64,000 bases of DNA. It comes from an uncultured virus (IMG/VR IMGVR_UViG_3300031416_000004). Its lineage: Duplodnaviria > Heunggongvirae > Uroviricota > Caudoviricetes. The notes beneath the pieces are model-generated. The model did no database searches, had not been told where the DNA came from, and saw only the letters and a program-made list of their open reading frames with translations. The translations under genes were made by a program, and so were the position numbers. Shown piece by piece: positions 3,086 to 17,625 of this stretch; the stretch's first letter is position 1; each line of letters begins with the position of its first letter. Where the stretch lies: the IMG/VR virus record IMGVR_UViG_3300031416_000004. One strand, given 5' to 3'.

Positions 3086-3500
3086 GGGCACGCACCTCGA
3101 CACCGGCTTCCTTGAACATCGCCGTAGACGCTTCGATTTCGTCGCCAAGCGCCTGAAAGGTTCCACCGCCGAACACAACACGTTTGATGCCGGCTTGGAT
3201 CAATGTTCGAGTGCAGGCGGCGCAAGGGTGATGGGTCGTGTAGACGGTGCAACCTTCTGTGGGGATGCCTGCTCGCGCAGCGAAAGCGACAAGGTTAGCT
3301 TCCCCATGAGATGCAAACAGGTACTTTGTCGGACGCTTACGGCGTTCATCACTCTCGTGGACGCCGATCGGTGGGCCGTTGAAACCGGTAAGGCGCACTT
3401 CGCGGTTGGGCCCGACGAGGACGGCGCCGACCTGCGTGCTGTCTTTCGATTTTTTGGCGGCGTGCTCGGCAAACCCTAGCAAATATTCATCCCAATTCAC
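3078..3500 (-). CDS. dCMP deaminase
   Basis: SKD..TQVGA, GFNG, HGEAN and PCAAC zinc-deaminase motifs. Confidence 0.9.
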   Translation of the reverse strand: MNWDEYLLGFAEHAAKKSKDSTQVGAVLVGPNREVRLTGFNGPPIGVHESDERRKRPTKYLFASHGEANLVAFAARAGIPTEGCTVYTTHHPCAACTRTLIQAGIKRVVFGGGTFQALGDEIEASTAMFKEAGVEVRALG

Positions 3501-4837: not shown

Positions 4838-6958
4838 TTATCCACAAATAGTTGATTTTGTAAACGACGAAAGATAGAGATCGAGCGCTGTTTCTCGCTT
4901 TCCCCATCCCATGTTCCTGAGAATTTCGTAGGCTTCTTCGATGTAACGGTCATGATCCACGTCCGCAGGCACAACAAGATCATCCGGCAGCGTCATGATG
5001 GGCCGACAGCCATCTGACCTTGACACCTTGGCGCGGTTCCCTGTCTTGGCGTGCGGCTTGCCGCGCATGATCGGAGCACCGTCCTTCGCCCAATAGAAGC
5101 GCACGGTTTTACCGAGATATTGACCATTCCAGTCGCCACCGCCCTTGGCTTTGATGACACGAACGAAACCACGCACGTCAGGATAATTCCTGATGAAGTC
5201 TTCAATCGGAATCCCGTCGACAAGGAACGCCAGGATCGCGTCACCGCACACCGTCATGTTGGGATTCTTTTTCATCTGCTCGAACGACGGGCTATATTCC
5301 GGCGAGTCCTTCATCAGGAATTTACTCAAGCCTTCGTGTTCGATCCTCGCCAAGAGAGGGTCGTCTTCCTTCAGTTTGTTCCGCCAGTGGTTTGCAATGT
5401 ACCCCTTGCGCTTGGCCTTACCATCGGGCTTGATCGCCAGGTAGAAATTGACATCCCGATTATAGATCGCCTTGTATTCGGCACCTTCGAGGATGAAGCT
5501 TGTCGTGTTCTCCCACCACTCGATGAGTTCTTTGAGGAACCCGCCTGCCGGCCGGTCACCCTTCATGCCTTCATACAGGTGGCGCGGGATCTTCATCACG
5601 ACACCATCAGTGTTTGCCGACACGATCCGGATGCCGGCAAGTTCTGCGCGCTCGATCAGCATCAACAATGTTAGCTGACCGGTCAGCGTCGTAGCAATCA
5701 TCAGGTGTGGAGCAAACAGAACGCTGTAACGGCTCCCGAGCTTGCCATATGGACCGTTCAGACCAACCTTTCGGCCATCCGACCGAACCTTGAAGAATAG
5801 TTCTTTCTCGCGGTCGCCGGCATCACGAGCGTCGTTTGAACGCTTCTTGTCTGCCATGCGCTCGGCTTTAATGCCGCCGTAGACAGGCTGGAATTTTGGG
5901 CCGACCGCTTTCGGGTAAAGGCCAAGCTTTAGGATGATCGAAGGGTACTGAGAGCCCACGTCGAAGTCGACAAGCTGCCAATCGTCATCCGACGCTTCGA
6001 CACGACACTTTTCCTGCGAATGCAGTCCGCCGATGCCTAGCTTGTAGGTGGACTGGCCGATCTCAATCTTGAATTTCTTGAACTCGTCAGGGAACGGCAC
6101 GGAGCCGGTATCTGTGACCTCAATATCAGTCTCTCGAATGACCTTCAAAACGTTCTGTAGCAGCGGCGTTTTGAACTCTATGAAGTCGGGAACTTCGTAT
6201 CGGAACCGATAGCCGCCTTTGAATTCACTTTTCTGGATCTGCTTTTTGATCAGACGTTCCACGCCGATCTTGATCATGCGCTCGCCGGTCTGTGCATCCG
6301 ACAGCGACCGAGCATCAATGCCGTAAATCTCGCCAATCGACTCGCGAAGTTCGAGCGCCTGCGAGCAATGCGAATAGAGGGTCGCGGTCGCAGGGCAGTC
6401 CGAATTTCGGCAATAGTCGTTCAGTACGTCCATCTCGTCGTGGGTGAGATCGGCGTCAGGGTCTACGGGAAGGTCTTGGAGCCGCTTTGCGTGCAGGCGA
6501 CCGGCAAGCGTCTTGAGGCTCGCGCTGCCGGAGGCGAAAACGTTCTCCTGCTCGTCGTCATCATCGGCACCGGTTCCCACGGAGGGGTTGGTGTCGAAAA
6601 GATCGATGTGATCCACGTAGGACGGAACGACGATGCCGAACTCGCGCTCGCAGTCCCACGGTTTCTTCCGCTTTTTGATAATCCAGTCAGAGAGTGCTTT
6701 CAGGTCCGCGTTGCTCGCGCCATTGAGCGCGTACAACAGAACCATCATGTCGTAGTCTCTCGAATTGAAGCCGACTACGGTGTATTTCTTGAGAATGCGC
6801 CTCACGCGCAGCGGATCGAAATCAGCGCGATCACTGCGTTCATAGCCGATTGACCGGCCGTCCAGCGTCAGGAATGCCACGTAGAAATAATTCCGGTAGC
6901 ATTCCAAGTCGAAGAAGGCGACTGGACGTTCGGTCTTGGTCGTGACTTCTTTGGCCAT
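4838..6958 (-). CDS. Family B-type DNA polymerase with 3'-5' exonuclease
   Basis: ExoI FDLEC, FNSRDYD, motif A DFDVGSQYPS, motif B KVGLNGPYG, motif C NTDG. Confidence 0.88.
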   Translation of the reverse strand: MAKEVTTKTERPVAFFDLECYRNYFYVAFLTLDGRSIGYERSDRADFDPLRVRRILKKYTVVGFNSRDYDMMVLLYALNGASNADLKALSDWIIKKRKKPWDCEREFGIVVPSYVDHIDLFDTNPSVGTGADDDDEQENVFASGSASLKTLAGRLHAKRLQDLPVDPDADLTHDEMDVLNDYCRNSDCPATATLYSHCSQALELRESIGEIYGIDARSLSDAQTGERMIKIGVERLIKKQIQKSEFKGGYRFRYEVPDFIEFKTPLLQNVLKVIRETDIEVTDTGSVPFPDEFKKFKIEIGQSTYKLGIGGLHSQEKCRVEASDDDWQLVDFDVGSQYPSIILKLGLYPKAVGPKFQPVYGGIKAERMADKKRSNDARDAGDREKELFFKVRSDGRKVGLNGPYGKLGSRYSVLFAPHLMIATTLTGQLTLLMLIERAELAGIRIVSANTDGVVMKIPRHLYEGMKGDRPAGGFLKELIEWWENTTSFILEGAEYKAIYNRDVNFYLAIKPDGKAKRKGYIANHWRNKLKEDDPLLARIEHEGLSKFLMKDSPEYSPSFEQMKKNPNMTVCGDAILAFLVDGIPIEDFIRNYPDVRGFVRVIKAKGGGDWNGQYLGKTVRFYWAKDGAPIMRGKPHAKTGNRAKVSRSDGCRPIMTLPDDLVVPADVDHDRYIEEAYEILRNMGWGKRETALDLYLSSFTKSTICG

Positions 6959-7023
6959 CAAGCACTCTAACATCAACAAATTGTGGATTTACAGGGCGCA
7001 GTTAAGCGCCCTGTAAGGTGACA

Positions 7024-7707
7024 TCAGATGTCTTCATCATCGTCGATAGAGGGTGCCTTCTTATTGGCTGGCTTGCCGCCGAGATCATCATCGTCATCGT
7101 CGTCGCCGAGGTTTTCAATTTCGTCGTCGTCGATGCCGCCACCGGCAAATTCCTCACCCTTCTTGAAATACTGAAGGGCATCGAGAGTGGTGAAGATGCC
7201 GTTGCCGCCCTTATCCTTCGCCTTGATGGCGTAGAGGTGGAAATAGGCGATCGCATAGTAACCCGAGCGAAAAAGGTCTTCACCTTCGTCCTCGATGTCA
7301 ATGTCCTCGCCGCGGCGATTTTTGTATTTCGGCTTCCGGTCGTTGGTCAGGCGCAGATAGCGCATGCCCTCGTATCCATCACGAACATCACCGTCGTCGG
7401 TGACATACTTGTCGCCATCGAACAGCGGCCAGCGGCCTTTCGGACCGTCGCCCATTGCACTCTTGAGATTTGCGAGCTCCTTGCCAGGCCATTCCTTGGC
7501 GCACAGGTTACGAATTGCTTCGTTGATCACCTTTACGCTGGCCTTGCCGTCTTCCGTAGTTGGATCGATCAAGCCGTTGGTGCGATATTTCAGTTTTGCA
7601 CCCTCAGTGTTCGAAGAAGCTGTCTTCGCGAAGCCCTTAAAGTAGCTGAGACGCACCATGACTTTGATGGTGCCCTTTTCTGCGTTGAATGATGGTTTGA
7701 ATCCCAT
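7024..7707 (-). CDS. ssDNA-binding protein (DUF2815/gp2.5-like)
   Basis: VRLSY, DGD, SGYY, NGIFTTLDALQYFKKGE pattern; very acidic C-terminal tail; synteny. Confidence 0.8.
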   Translation of the reverse strand: MGFKPSFNAEKGTIKVMVRLSYFKGFAKTASSNTEGAKLKYRTNGLIDPTTEDGKASVKVINEAIRNLCAKEWPGKELANLKSAMGDGPKGRWPLFDGDKYVTDDGDVRDGYEGMRYLRLTNDRKPKYKNRRGEDIDIEDEGEDLFRSGYYAIAYFHLYAIKAKDKGGNGIFTTLDALQYFKKGEEFAGGGIDDDEIENLGDDDDDDDLGGKPANKKAPSIDDDEDI

Positions 7708-7752: not shown

Positions 7753-8997
7753 TCAGTCGTCGAAATCTCCAAAATCCTCGTCGAGGTTTTCGAAGTCTGT
7801 GGTGACCAGAAGCGCTGGCCGCGCATCCTCGATCGAGACGATCGAAGGAGTGGGTTCGCCGCCGACAACAAAATCCCTGGGGAACTTCCCCTTACCAACG
7901 ATTTTGTCCAGCATTGCGGGAGTTCTCAACTTTTTGATGATTATCTGGTCGTCTTTAAAGCCGTTCTTCTTCAACCAGGCTTCCGACTGTTCTTCATCCG
8001 CGTGCTTGCGGTTCGAACGCCGGCCGGCGACAATCTTTAGCCCGTATTTCTCACCGTCGCCGGTCCGCACGTCTGCAGCGACGGAAGCTTCCACGCGGGT
8101 GAGGAACTGACGGGCGAGAGACAAATGGTCATAAATGGCCTTTTTACGGGCTGTCGTGAGACCTTCCACGTCAGGAAAGGTGATCTCCACGCCGAAGTCC
8201 TCGTACTCGTCAAGATTTTCGAACTCGATACCGGAAAATTCTAGTGCCCACGCCTCATATTCAGGACAGGCACCTTCCACCTTCGCGGCAGGACACCAGG
8301 TGCAACCGTCCTTTGAGGGTATGCACGGAGCATTAGGATCAAACGTCAGCTTGGCCCGCTCACGGATCTCGGCAGCCTTCGCCCGCAGTTCCTTGATAGA
8401 GATGACCCACTCACCGCCGCCGCGTCCGTTTCTCGGTTGATCGATGATTATCCGGACGCGCTTGATATGAGGATGGGTATCTTTGATCTGCTCCCATAGC
8501 GCATCGAAGTAGATGATCTGCTGCGTGTTCCCGACAGCTTCAACCGGAATGCCTTTTCCGTATTTCAGATCGGACTGAACAGCCTCATCACCTTCGTCCG
8601 GACCGGGAATAACAGCGCAATCGAGTGTGCCCCTTTGGGGTTCACCGTGGTCGTTAAGACCGGTGATGTGCGTTATGTCGACACGGCTTTCGATGATCAT
8701 CTTGCCGGGAAACTCGCGGATGCGATCGATCCCTGGCTGCAGGGCATCTGCCATGTCCTCGTCGCAGATATAGAGAACCCCGTTCACCTGCACTTCAGTA
8801 CCGACAAAATCATGGGCATCCAAACCGACGCTCAGTGCCAGTTCTCGTATGAGATGAGCAGCGGTGCCTTCATCGGCAGCCGTGTTAATGCGCCCGTCAT
8901 CCCTGTCCAGACCGAGCTTCTTGCAACGGTTCAATGCACCGGGACAGGTGGTCCACCGTTTGCTGTCAGATGGAGAATTTCGGGCGTGTCCTGCCAA
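7753..8997 (-). CDS. DUF2800 / Cas4-like PD-(D/E)XK nuclease
   Basis: HARNSPS..RW..CP, EGTAAH, GTLD, DLKYG, C..CP...C; TTG start inferred after AAGGA. Confidence 0.85.
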   Translation of the reverse strand: MAGHARNSPSDSKRWTTCPGALNRCKKLGLDRDDGRINTAADEGTAAHLIRELALSVGLDAHDFVGTEVQVNGVLYICDEDMADALQPGIDRIREFPGKMIIESRVDITHITGLNDHGEPQRGTLDCAVIPGPDEGDEAVQSDLKYGKGIPVEAVGNTQQIIYFDALWEQIKDTHPHIKRVRIIIDQPRNGRGGGEWVISIKELRAKAAEIRERAKLTFDPNAPCIPSKDGCTWCPAAKVEGACPEYEAWALEFSGIEFENLDEYEDFGVEITFPDVEGLTTARKKAIYDHLSLARQFLTRVEASVAADVRTGDGEKYGLKIVAGRRSNRKHADEEQSEAWLKKNGFKDDQIIIKKLRTPAMLDKIVGKGKFPRDFVVGGEPTPSIVSIEDARPALLVTTDFENLDEDFGDFDD

Positions 8998-9011
8998 TGT
9001 CTCATCCTTGT

Positions 9012-9247
9012 GAGACCGTTTTGAAGGAAGTCGATTGGGATGGCCCGACTGAACGGCTAAACCAAACCCTATTCCCCACATGGAACCGGTGATGTGGCAC
9101 TGGCCGACTTCCCTCAAAACGATCTCTTGTTATCGTGGATCATTTCAAAGGACGCTCAACGGCAGAGGTTGAACCGTTTCAGGGGAGACTGAACACCGGG
9201 GGGAAAGCGGTGGAGCGTCCTTTGAAATGATCCCGGCCCGAAGGCCG
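9012..9247 (-). ncRNA. Candidate structured RNA: two long stems each enclosing a multi-hairpin domain
   Basis: Inverted repeats 9012-9033/9105-9126 (mismatches are G-U on the minus strand) and perfect 9137-9157/9213-9233; UUCG hairpin 9234-9247. Confidence 0.6.
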
Positions 9248-9276
9248 AGACCACTTTTTCGCCTTGGGAGGCTTGA

Positions 9277-10406: not shown

Positions 10407-12860
10407 ATGCTCCATGAAATTGAACCATTTGCGCGAGCAGGTTTTGCGATCCACTGGCTGCACCCGAAATCCAAGCGGCCGATCGGCAACGATTGGGCTT
10501 CGAAGCCGGTAAAGACGTTGGACCAACTGCGCAACAGCTACGAGGCCGGCGTATCCGGCAAAAATGTCGGCGTGCGACTTGGAAAGTGGTCGAAGATCGG
10601 TTCTGATTTCCTTCTCGTCATCGATGTCGACATCCGCAAGCCGGAACTGGCGAAAGAAGCCTTCGCAGAACTGAAGCACCTGTTTCCTGAATACGCAACG
10701 TATCCATCCGTGATCTCGGGCTCAGGCGGCGCGAGCCGGCATTTCTACATCCTGACATCTCGTGAGTTCCCGTCGAAACAGTTAGCTCACTCTGCGCACC
10801 AATCCCTTGTTTGGGATGAGAAGCAGCAGAAGGACGTGAAAAAGTGGGATTGGGAGATCGAGCTTTTCGGCACCGGCAAACAAGTTGCCATGCCGCCATC
10901 GATCCACCCGATCACCGGGAAACCGTATATTTGGGAGCGCCCGTTCGACCTGGACGATCTCGATCTCGGCTTGGGCCCGTTCGTCGAGTCGGACTACGTT
11001 GCCTCGCTGATCGATTACGACGAGGAACGCGAGAACGCACCGGTCAATCCTGATGCCATTGAACCGCTCGGCCTGACACCGGACCAGGTTCGCGAGATGC
11101 TGTCGAAGATCCCGAATGAGGATTTCGACTACGAGGAATGGCTGAACGTCATGGCCTCTGTCCAGCATGAGGCGCAGGGACATCCTCTCTCGATCCGCAA
11201 GCAATTCTACGAGGTATTTCGCGAGTGGTCTGCGCGATCCTCCAAGCACGACGATGAAACGACCAAAGCCAAATACAAGAGTTTCAAGAACAGTCCGAAT
11301 CGGAGACAGCGCACAATGCGCTCAATTCAGGCGCAGGTCCGCGAGATCGAGCTTGATGAGCAAATGGACGACCTTGGTGACGAGATTGATGATCTCGGGC
11401 CCGAGGAAGATGAGGAAGACGGTGAATTCGATGACGTGCTCGGCAGCGACCCCGACAAGCCGTCCAAACGAGAAATCAGATTGCGCAAGGCAGAGGTCGA
11501 GCACGCCTTCGGCATAGTCCCGAAGCGTATCCAGCGTCTGAATGAAAAGCACGCTGTCACGTTTTTGAGCGGCAAGTGCGTAATTATCACCGAAAATTCT
11601 GACGGGACAACATCTTACGGAACCCCCGGTGAGCTTCATAACTGGTACGAAAACGACCGTGTGGCCGGTGAGAAGTCCACTCAACCGGTGTCGAAAGCCT
11701 GGATGCAGCACAAGGGACGGCGGCAGTATCCGAACGGCGTTGTTTTTTCCCCTGGAAAGGAACGTGACGGCTACTTCAACCACTGGAAAGGGTTCGATGT
11801 GGAGCCTGATCCCAAGGGTTCCTGTAAAATGTGGCTGGATCACCTACGCGAGATCATCTGCTGCGGAAATGAAGAGCATTATCGGTACGCGCTCGGATGG
11901 TTTGCCCACATGGTTCAGAAGCCTTGGGAGAAACCTGGCGTTGCCATGGTCCTGCGCGGCAGAAAGCGCATTGGTAAGGACACGATCGCCGACTATTTCG
12001 GCGGTATCATCAAGCGATATCACGTCACGGTCGCCAATCAGGACCAGATGGTCGGCAAGTTCAACCAGCACCAAGAACGGTGCCTGATGCTCCATGTGCA
12101 GGAAGGTTTTTGGGCCGGCAACAAGCAGGCTGAAGGTTCCCTGAAGTACCTGATCACCTCGACATCGGTGATGATCGAACCGAAGACCGTGAATGCCTTT
12201 AAGGTGGACAGCTATCTTCGCCTTTTCATCTCGTCGAACGAAGATTGGGTCGTTCCTGCCACCGCAGATGAAGGGCGTTATTTCGTTCTGGATGTCTCCG
12301 ACAAGCGGAAGGACGATCACAAGTATTTCGGCGCGATGAAGCGCGAGATGATGAACGGTGGTCTGGAAGCTCTGCTCCATTACCTGCAGAACTACGATCT
12401 CAGCAAGTTCGAAGTGCGCAAGGTGCCGGATACCAATGCGCTGGCCGACCAGAAAATCCAGGGTTTGAAGAACCTCGACAAGTGGTGGTTCTCGATGCTC
12501 GAATCAGGTGAGCCAGAGTTCGAGTTTCAGAACATCAAGGGCATAGTTGCTGACTGGAACACTGAGGCCATCGTCGTGGATCGAGACGACTTCCGCAATG
12601 TCTACTCTGCATGGATGCGGCACCAGCGCTATGACGGCAGCGAGCTTGTGAAGTTCATGATCGGCAAACGGCTCCGCGAGCTTTGCCCGCAGATCGAAGA
12701 CAGGCGGCGCCGTGATGGTAGCAAGCAGATTTGGACATATGTCATTCCGAGTTTGCCGCAGTGCCGATTGGAGTTCAGCAAGTTTATGAATTCCGAGATC
12801 AAGTGGGAGAGCACTGACGCTCCTGAAATCGTTCTGGAAGAGGATTTCGACGATTTATAA
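10407..12860 (+). CDS. Prim-Pol primase fused to PriCT-2 and SF3/DUF5906 helicase
   Basis: IDVD, SGSGG.RHFY, PPSIHP; WL....S...F.EWS PriCT pattern; GRKRIGKD, ISSN helicase motifs. Confidence 0.9.
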   Translation: MLHEIEPFARAGFAIHWLHPKSKRPIGNDWASKPVKTLDQLRNSYEAGVSGKNVGVRLGKWSKIGSDFLLVIDVDIRKPELAKEAFAELKHLFPEYATYPSVISGSGGASRHFYILTSREFPSKQLAHSAHQSLVWDEKQQKDVKKWDWEIELFGTGKQVAMPPSIHPITGKPYIWERPFDLDDLDLGLGPFVESDYVASLIDYDEERENAPVNPDAIEPLGLTPDQVREMLSKIPNEDFDYEEWLNVMASVQHEAQGHPLSIRKQFYEVFREWSARSSKHDDETTKAKYKSFKNSPNRRQRTMRSIQAQVREIELDEQMDDLGDEIDDLGPEEDEEDGEFDDVLGSDPDKPSKREIRLRKAEVEHAFGIVPKRIQRLNEKHAVTFLSGKCVIITENSDGTTSYGTPGELHNWYENDRVAGEKSTQPVSKAWMQHKGRRQYPNGVVFSPGKERDGYFNHWKGFDVEPDPKGSCKMWLDHLREIICCGNEEHYRYALGWFAHMVQKPWEKPGVAMVLRGRKRIGKDTIADYFGGIIKRYHVTVANQDQMVGKFNQHQERCLMLHVQEGFWAGNKQAEGSLKYLITSTSVMIEPKTVNAFKVDSYLRLFISSNEDWVVPATADEGRYFVLDVSDKRKDDHKYFGAMKREMMNGGLEALLHYLQNYDLSKFEVRKVPDTNALADQKIQGLKNLDKWWFSMLESGEPEFEFQNIKGIVADWNTEAIVVDRDDFRNVYSAWMRHQRYDGSELVKFMIGKRLRELCPQIEDRRRRDGSKQIWTYVIPSLPQCRLEFSKFMNSEIKWESTDAPEIVLEEDFDDL

Positions 12861-17207: not shown

Positions 17208-17517
17208 TCTCCTTATCTCACTTGGGGTTCCTTATCTCACTCCTTGTCTCAGATAATATGTTGGATTCATTGCAAAAAACCGAGGTGAGATAAGGAAGAC
17301 AAGCGAGATAAGGAGTTTTTTGCTCAGAAAAACGAAGTGATTTTTCGCACACTTTCGCCCGGATGCTGCCACGGTGGGAGGGGAAATTTCTTGTAGCCAT
17401 ACACGGAAAACTCCTTATCTCATTTATCTTCCTTGTCTCACCCTAATAATAATAAATAGAATCAATAAGTTAAGTGAGACAAGGATGAGATAAGGAAGGC
17501 CAAGTGAGATAAGGAGA
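17208..17517. repeat. Symmetric array of ten TGAGAYAAGG-type repeats (candidate origin or packaging control region)
   Basis: Copies at 17211, 17230, 17242, 17413, 17431 (reverse) and 17286, 17304, 17475, 17486, 17505 (forward); AT-rich spacer 17441-17474. Confidence 0.8.
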
Positions 17518-17625
17518 TTTCCAAAATCCGGTGTTTTCGCCGAAAAACCGCACTTTCGTAACGCTTTGAACCCTTCAGGCCAATTTCAGGGCAAAAATTT
17601 TTCCAAAAACTGGCGCGAACCGGGG

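Follow-up and report, generated by a model that had tools for sequence, protein, structure and literature searches.

Small structured RNAs and long paired stems are already described from several mobile genomes. The P1 C4 and P4 CI RNAs are small structured immunity RNAs processed from a phage operon transcript. Phage T7 reportedly has many RNase III sites, those of its early region being said to have a stem with an internal loop, and in lambda sib retroregulation the longer stem is said to form only when transcription runs past a terminator. In alpha-rhizobia, the ar14/NfeR1 small RNAs form three hairpins, each with the anti-Shine-Dalgarno motif CCUCCUCCC unpaired, according to the accessible part of the source (PMC10746234). 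At the DNA level, the closest described arrangement is the origin of the archaeal plasmid pRN1, which, in the accessible sections of Berkner et al. 2014 (PMC4234260), needs a stem-loop of ~100 nt (21-nt stem, 58-nt loop, the loop being essential) behind a dispensable terminator hairpin. The same sections describe pRN plasmids as having conserved flanks broken by a stem-loop whose structure is highly and whose sequence is poorly conserved, place a winged helix in the C-terminus of the pRN1 Rep, ascribe nearly the same domain layout to the Rep of BIP-1, BPP-1 and BMP-1, and propose a stem-loop for BIP-1 at ~27.1 kb.

The locus studied here lies in a provirus region of the window, by which we mean the whole 64,000-nt stretch analysed (IMG/VR record IMGVR_UViG_3300031416_000004, Caudoviricetes). 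One IMG/VR provirus record is 100% identical to it across 501 nt, and the closest named phage is Rhizobium phage RHph_X2_30 (Casjensviridae). Two minus-strand genes of the replication operon flank a non-coding gap of 279 nt (8998-9276), in agreement with the ~280 nt originally noted. The features of the region are as follows.

4838-6979, minus strand: DNA polymerase gene (PHROG 1252), downstream of the ssDNA-binding protein gene
7024-7707, minus strand: gene for an Enc34-type ssDNA-binding protein (SSB; Pfam), downstream of the DUF2800 gene
7753-8997, minus strand: DUF2800 nuclease gene, Cas4-like PD-(D/E)XK (Pfam)
8995-9009, minus strand: Shine-Dalgarno AAGGA (9005-9009) and TTG start (8995-8997) of the DUF2800 gene, from the sequence and the conservation of frame and N-terminus
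9012-9126, minus strand: element B, a 22-bp stem (arms 9105-9126 and 9012-9033) around a 71-nt multibranch interior
9127-9136, minus strand: A-B spacer of 10 nt, ACGAUAACAA in RNA
9137-9233, minus strand: element A, stem arms 9213-9233 and 9137-9157, 21 bp perfect, extendable to 27
9234-9247, minus strand: GC hairpin CGGCC-UUCG-GGCCG (fold), abutting stem A
9261-9272, minus strand: small hairpin GCCU-CCCA-AGGC (MFE fold), directly past the gene X stop codon
9277-9804, minus strand: gene X (ORF list), upstream of the gap, encoding 175 aa with an acidic C-terminus ending in SDDEEI
10407-12860, plus strand: divergent gene for a Prim-Pol/PriCT_2/DUF5906 replication protein (Pfam)

The extent of the gap depends on the start of the DUF2800 frame, which we place at TTG 8997 because the LAGHARN N-terminus encoded there is conserved in relatives and the Pfam match begins only at residue 44 of the frame opened at 9117. 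The mechanical ORF from TTG 9117 would cross element B, and an ATG at 9003 is out of frame and gives a frame of only 24 codons. The AAGGA and TTG of the nuclease gene lie 3-15 nt past stem B, and the gene X stop codon lies ~30 nt ahead of the GC hairpin. The gene X product has no Pfam or PHROG match; homologues of the gene are found upstream of the element in four relatives (L006, L007, L012 and L291). No promoter-like site was found in the gap, so the downstream genes depend on read-through. ARAGORN found no tRNA in the window, and a tRNA-like reading of the gap was dropped. Of four sequencing runs compared with the locus, one yielded a 204-nt contig piece within the nuclease gene and the three raw RNA runs yielded nothing, which is too little to serve as a test of expression.

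Both long inverted repeats of the original prediction were recovered. The A arms extend to 27 nt (9137-9163/9207-9233) at 93% complementarity with the outer 21 bp perfect, and the B arms are 91% complementary, their two mismatches being C.A/A.C on the plus strand and, as had been pointed out, G.U/U.G on the minus strand only. The two stems, which had been said to resemble each other, are alike at 12 of 17 positions. On the minus strand, the RNA of the gap folds at -126.7 kcal/mol (z = -7.2, none of 200 shuffles as good) into the small hairpin, the cUUCGg hairpin, A, the spacer and B, in that order; the plus strand folds well too (z = -5.1). The minus-strand fold also reproduced the proposed four-way junction behind the UUCG hairpin, in which the A stem encloses three hairpins (at ~9194-9212, 9178-9193 and 9158-9178 in the MFE fold) whose loops in minus-strand RNA are CUUUCCCCC, UCUCCC and UCAACCUCU. 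Element B has no GC hairpin of its own, and its loops are not CU-rich. It is flanked on both sides by ACAA, too short to count as a target-site duplication.

The GC hairpin appears terminator-like or 3'-protective, with no proper U tract. The terminator scan did not call it in the window, where its tail is GAUCAUUUC; in relatives it is followed by U5 (L024 and L066) or U4 (L036 and L071). The small hairpin next to gene X covaries, reading GCGC...GCGC in L012 and RHph_X2_30 and GCCUU...AAGGC in L007.

Comparison with close relatives indicates that these folds are maintained. Four variants of A are available, namely those of the window, of L006/L010 (nuclease 94% identical), of L007/L011 (83%) and of the metagenome contig L291. 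The consensus fold is kept in all four, with 40 pairs, 6 of which carry compensatory double changes, including changes in the interior hairpins, and with 7 G.U against 2 A.C cells. The B fold is kept in its two variants (window and L291), with 32 pairs, 3 of them with double changes. Element B has been seen only in these two and is a lineage-specific second copy: L291 has A then B, as in the window, L007/L011 lack B so that A runs straight into the nuclease gene, and L006/L010 carry a NUMOD4-HNH endonuclease gene at the position of B. The folding and covariance analysis proposed for the locus therefore bore out structures that lie, conserved and in transcribed orientation, inside the replication operon.

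More distant relatives retain the frame and exchange the content. L012 and RHph_X2_30 (nuclease ~65% identical) have one element each, with the same GC hairpin, a stem that starts GGGGTCATTT and an interior that differs from that of the window; by reading, the B stem is nearer to the L012 stem than to A. The two palindrome-pattern scans gave 11 metagenome matches, among them one new relative (L291), and 6 viral matches, which added only known relatives, the other matches being unrelated palindromes. A 14-mer scan of viral contigs was unspecific, with more than 120 single chance matches. Two side observations concern the gene order. In L291 (445-459 onward, minus strand), B is followed by a small AT-rich ORF (MSRFICVMHRW...) and not by the DUF2800 nuclease gene. 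In L014, whose nuclease is 36% identical, the equivalent gap holds tandem tRNA genes (1637-1708 and 1730-1802) behind a GC hairpin.

A search for long inverted repeats in 160 loci around DUF2800 homologues places element A in a much wider context. The recurrent layout consists of a GC-rich hairpin, often cUUCGg, an abutting stem of ~20 bp, an interior ranging from a loop of 7-11 nt to ~110 nt of branches, and then, after ~15 nt, the ribosome site of the next gene, whose start codon lies ~13-25 nt past the 3' arm. The stem starts CGCTTTG or CRYTTTG and finishes CAAAGCG. A covariance model, R1, was built from 8 BPP-1-like sequences only, with the window left out; it matches A at 9138-9251 on the minus strand with 39 bits (E 9e-5 in 450 kb), and also matches L010, L011, L024 and L026. 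It gives no match on B at E<=1 and does not detect the elements of L012 and RHph_X2_30. Sense matches at E<0.01 were obtained in 27 of 81 sources plus 5 of 82 further ones, 8 of them the seeds. All of these sense matches are on the strand of the DUF2800 gene, antisense matches being weaker echoes of the same place, and scanning of whole records (n=38) found exactly one site in each of the 9 positive records.

The element is intercistronic in every case. It occupies the SSB-polymerase gap in BPP-1-like phages, lying between bbp40 and bbp41/42 in Bordetella phage BPP-1 itself, and sits upstream of DUF2800 in the window lineage and in L026. Among 33 hand-curated elements, 30 have a GC hairpin directly against the stem, and 15 of these 30 hairpins carry, in sense orientation, a UNCG-type loop (cUUCGg, uUUCGg or cUGCGg). 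The UNCG tetraloop is an RNA-specific stability motif. Judged by these matches, element A is a member of a widespread, previously uncatalogued family common to alpha- and beta-proteobacterial phages, including BPP-1. Rfam 15 offered no family for the window, its only matches being chance-level miRNA and sRNA hits (E 3-9), and in the loci of 40 relatives nothing reached the gathering score except the two tRNAs of L014; our literature search found no description of the element.

Several other assignments were discarded. A "DUF2800 RNA motif" had no match in the literature searched, and no Rfam match was found upstream of DUF2800 in 20 Firmicutes loci. A protelomerase site was rejected because the interior of the palindrome is non-palindromic. 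A boxA/nut-like reading of CGCUUUG was dropped, since the motif takes part in pairing and the window lineage does not conserve it.

We consider A and B, with a probability of roughly 40%, to be a cis-acting intercistronic RNA module composed of a 3'-protective or attenuator hairpin and an RNase III-type duplex. Transcription would exit gene X and cross the cUUCGg hairpin, which has only a short U run and would therefore attenuate at most. In the read-through RNA, the U-containing 5' arm would pair with the A-containing 3' arm, giving regular duplexes that span about two turns of the helix, 21-27 bp in A and 22 bp in B, the size of a host RNase III substrate. Staggered cleavage of the stems would then part the transcript into a gene X message and a nuclease-SSB-polymerase message; the former would end beside the GC hairpin, with its 3' end thereby protected, and the latter would start a few nucleotides ahead of its Shine-Dalgarno sequence. 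The interior domains would be freed as structured RNAs of ~55-75 nt, probably by-products, and the interiors of A and B may represent lineage-specific cargo. RNase III cleavage, the stabilising role of the GC hairpin and the effect on expression ratios are what we infer here; the two tRNA genes in the equivalent gap of L014 might offer a parallel, with another kind of processed RNA in the same place.

Several properties fit an RNA-level role: the fixed orientation, the intercistronic site, the UNCG loops in the sense strand, the length of the stems, the dispensable interior and the excess of G.U in the window lineage. Both A and B are regular, transcribed, intercistronic duplexes of at least about 20 bp, as is sought in an RNase III site, and the range of interiors seen in the family, from a loop of 7-11 nt upwards, fits a recognition that needs the duplex only. 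Like the T7 and lambda sib sites, the elements have a double-stranded stem of about two turns in an intercistronic or 3'-proximal position within an operon transcript, with a hairpin that would remain at the 3' end of the upstream message. Unlike those of T7, the stems are near-perfect and have no internal loop, and their cleavage by RNase III is putative. They further differ from both systems in that there is one site per genome, a separate abutting cUUCGg hairpin and a stem that is hypervariable among close relatives.

The original prediction went further and proposed that RNase III-type stems release small RNAs that repress translation or confer immunity. The first half agrees with the stem length, which has a median of 20 bp over the 33 elements; a discrete small RNA found no support. 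If the interior domains were freed as trans-acting RNAs, their CU-rich loops would pair with Shine-Dalgarno sequences or phage targets. The four A variants do have three C/U-rich hairpin loops, with CCCC in loop 1 of all four, CUCC in loop 2 of three and CCUC in loop 3 of two, and hypervariable stems and interiors would suit a specificity determinant. With ar14/NfeR1 and AbcR (PMC10746234), element A shares the rhizobial context and a set of three hairpins whose unpaired loops are rich in C and U, ar14/NfeR1 having three anti-Shine-Dalgarno hairpins as well. Beyond these loops, which are conserved in the four close variants only, the anti-Shine-Dalgarno function is unsupported: CCUCCUCCC, the motif given in that part of the source, occurs in none of the loops of A, and the hairpins are closed by a 21-bp stem inside an mRNA.

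For such an RNA, the scans showed neither a promoter-like site nor a dedicated terminator, and the search of Rfam for C4, ar14, Y RNA or any other small-RNA family gave no match at E<=10. Against the remainder of the window, target prediction gave no complementary stretch of 14 nt or longer, and matches of 11-13 nt in the number expected by chance. Across the broader family the loops vary, the interior being reduced to a loop of 7-11 nt or exchanged, and in some members an interior domain is missing altogether; the loops of B, as noted, are of another composition. The proposed likeness to P1 C4 and P4 CI would be that of a small structured RNA from a phage operon transcript, but the search of the window found no target repeats, and the element belongs to the replication operon rather than to the immunity region. 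We rank a trans-acting RNA as the least probable of the four readings weighed, behind the RNA processing module, a stem-loop origin and a selfish element, in that order.

The evolution of the stems bears on all of these. In the 33 curated elements, 613 of 661 stem positions are Watson-Crick pairs, yet positions 8-16 comprise 30 distinct 9-mers, and the complementarity of these positions is 0.92 within an element's own arms vs 0.37 across elements. On the sequences compared, then, the stems differ almost completely among phages, and it is the pairing, not the sequence, that is kept. Nine BPP-1-like elements (36 pairs) allow the surroundings to be compared, and mean identity is 0.75 in the upstream 150 nt, 0.88 in the GC hairpin and stem base, 0.36 at stem positions 8-16 and 0.77 in the downstream 150 nt, so that in these phages the stem is a hypervariable cassette between conserved flanks. 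Exchange can be abrupt. L030 and L083 are 100% identical in the upstream 150 nt, 44% at stem positions 8-16 and 60% downstream; L030 (element 3153-3247) and L055 are 100% identical downstream and 80% upstream. Since L030 matches L083 upstream and L055 downstream, at 100% each, the element is an exact mosaic junction.

Three of these observations argue against an RNA processing module. Selection on RNA alone should tolerate G.U far above A.C, and the strand argument of the original prediction, which is valid for B and within the window lineage (7 vs 2), does not extend to the family as a whole, where 16 G.U stand against 10 A.C (p = 0.33) and folding energy favours the sense strand in no more than 11 of 25 elements. 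A plain processing site has no obvious need for wholesale replacement of its stem between nearly or fully identical flanks. The restriction to one copy per genome, in the replication module only, counts against it too.

The same lack of a family-wide wobble bias keeps alive a second reading, in which the palindrome is a DNA origin, or a loading or priming hairpin, for the Prim-Pol/SF3-helicase protein in the manner of pRN1, and the GC hairpin merely terminates the gene upstream. Stems that are near-perfect Watson-Crick palindromes free of strand bias would suit this role, as would the single occurrence per phage record, invariably within the replication module. A Prim-Pol and PriCT_2 replication protein is encoded by both the window and BPP-1, and that of the window is 23% identical to Bbp29 of BPP-1 (E 1e-9) over the N-terminal 300 residues. 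The pRN1 layout, as given in the accessible sections of PMC4234260, recurs in A and its family: a terminator hairpin followed by a stem-loop of ~100 nt with a stem of ~21 nt, conserved flanks with a variable stem, and structure conserved above sequence; the window and BPP-1 also encode a Rep that combines Prim-Pol with an SF3-type helicase. The Reps of four BPP-1-like phages (L317-L320, L170 3181-5742) are 82-89% identical overall, and in 5 of 6 pairs identity is lowest over the C-terminal ~55-80 residues (0.72-0.77 vs 0.81-0.97 centrally), which is only suggestive of co-variation with the stem.

Other evidence makes an origin unlikely. Prim-Pol (PF09250) is found in 6 of 9 R1-positive and 15 of 29 R1-negative records, a difference that is not significant, so there is no clear association between the element and this protein, and one R1-positive record that is 93% complete is devoid of it. 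The element is placed mid-operon, 13-25 nt ahead of the next start codon, and shifts among different intergenic sites; in pRN1, as the available text has it, the stem-loop follows the rep gene. Its loop shrinks to 7-11 nt and is thus dispensable in relatives, unlike the pRN1 loop reported as essential in that text. The stem-loop proposed there for BIP-1, at ~27.1 kb, is not in the SSB-polymerase gap. A tandem pair such as A and B would be odd for an origin. More conventional origin candidates exist elsewhere: in the window, the array at 17209-17522, where TCCTTATCTCAC occurs at least 10 times, and, in BPP-1 (L170 2608-2711), GCCTCGTTT repeats inverted about an AT-rich centre.

A third reading takes the element mainly for a by-product or target of selfish elements, either a palindromic recombination hot spot or a site of NUMOD4-HNH cleavage and insertion, with pairing kept by template-switch correction and with no dedicated phage function. 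It draws on the mosaic junction of L030, L083 and L055, on the position of B, where L006 has its endonuclease gene, and on NUMOD4+HNH_3 endonuclease genes, which in six of the 33 elements, drawn from several lineages, begin 10-22 nt past the 3' arm (L006 1971-2504, the same as in L010; L012 1471-1998; L024 2558-2959; L033 2299-2775; L046 2444-2842; L063 4136-4534). Against it, 27 of the 33 elements have no endonuclease gene, the architecture, the orientation and the hairpin with the stem base (0.88 identity) are conserved across alpha- and beta-proteobacterial phages, and the interior hairpins show compensatory changes; together these argue for a function of the element's own, and we hold a mainly selfish origin to be improbable, more so than a replication origin.

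Nor is the element a dispersed repeat. A MITE or dispersed palindrome, the host element against which the original prediction asked to be checked, is rejected, since each phage record has a single copy and the bacterial genomes searched have none: R1 had no match in 151 genomes of the order, a weak test with 22 candidates scored per genome, and BLAST against 401 genomes returned only pieces of 20-43 nt, in 8 genomes.

The variability of the stem could also be its purpose. The stem might be a fast-evolving specificity determinant that separates phages, a doubtful idea that we place between the origin and the selfish readings. A conserved frame, consisting of the cUUCGg hairpin and the CRYTTTG...CAAARYG base, would hold a hypervariable self-complementary cassette. 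On one branch of this idea, the variable C-terminus of the Prim-Pol/SF3 replicase would read an origin defined by structure; on the other, the stem would be a homing-endonuclease battleground, where escape from cleavage would drive stem turnover and create the mosaic junction. Were it true, it would establish a new class of element in phage replication modules, with the model phage BPP-1 among its carriers.

Whichever reading holds, a wide range of temperate alpha- and beta-proteobacterial phages, the well-studied BPP-1 among them, carry a conserved structure in their replication operon. As an RNA processing and stabilising module, our preferred reading, it would show how these phages set the ratio of SSB and accessory proteins to nuclease and polymerase. 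As a stem-loop origin, it would bring to bacteriophages a way of starting replication for which an archaeal plasmid has so far provided the only tests. The combination of hypervariable paired stems, exact junctions and adjacent homing endonucleases makes it a tractable site for the study of endonuclease-shaped phage mosaicism.

Finally, two other repeat-rich stretches deserve mention. In BPP-1, L170 2608-2711 (~26.6 kb) is a 48-nt inverted repeat, 83% complementary with an 8-nt centre, in the bbp27-bbp28 gap. It consists of doubled GCCTCGTTT units and is a more conventional candidate for an origin or operator than the stem-loop placed at ~27.1 kb in the literature. In the window, 17209-17522 is a non-coding stretch of ~320 bp with at least 10 copies of the 12-13-nt motif TCCTTATCTCAC in both orientations and nested inverted repeats of up to 36 nt. 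This iteron- or operator-like array might serve as phage origin, as partition site or as immunity operators.
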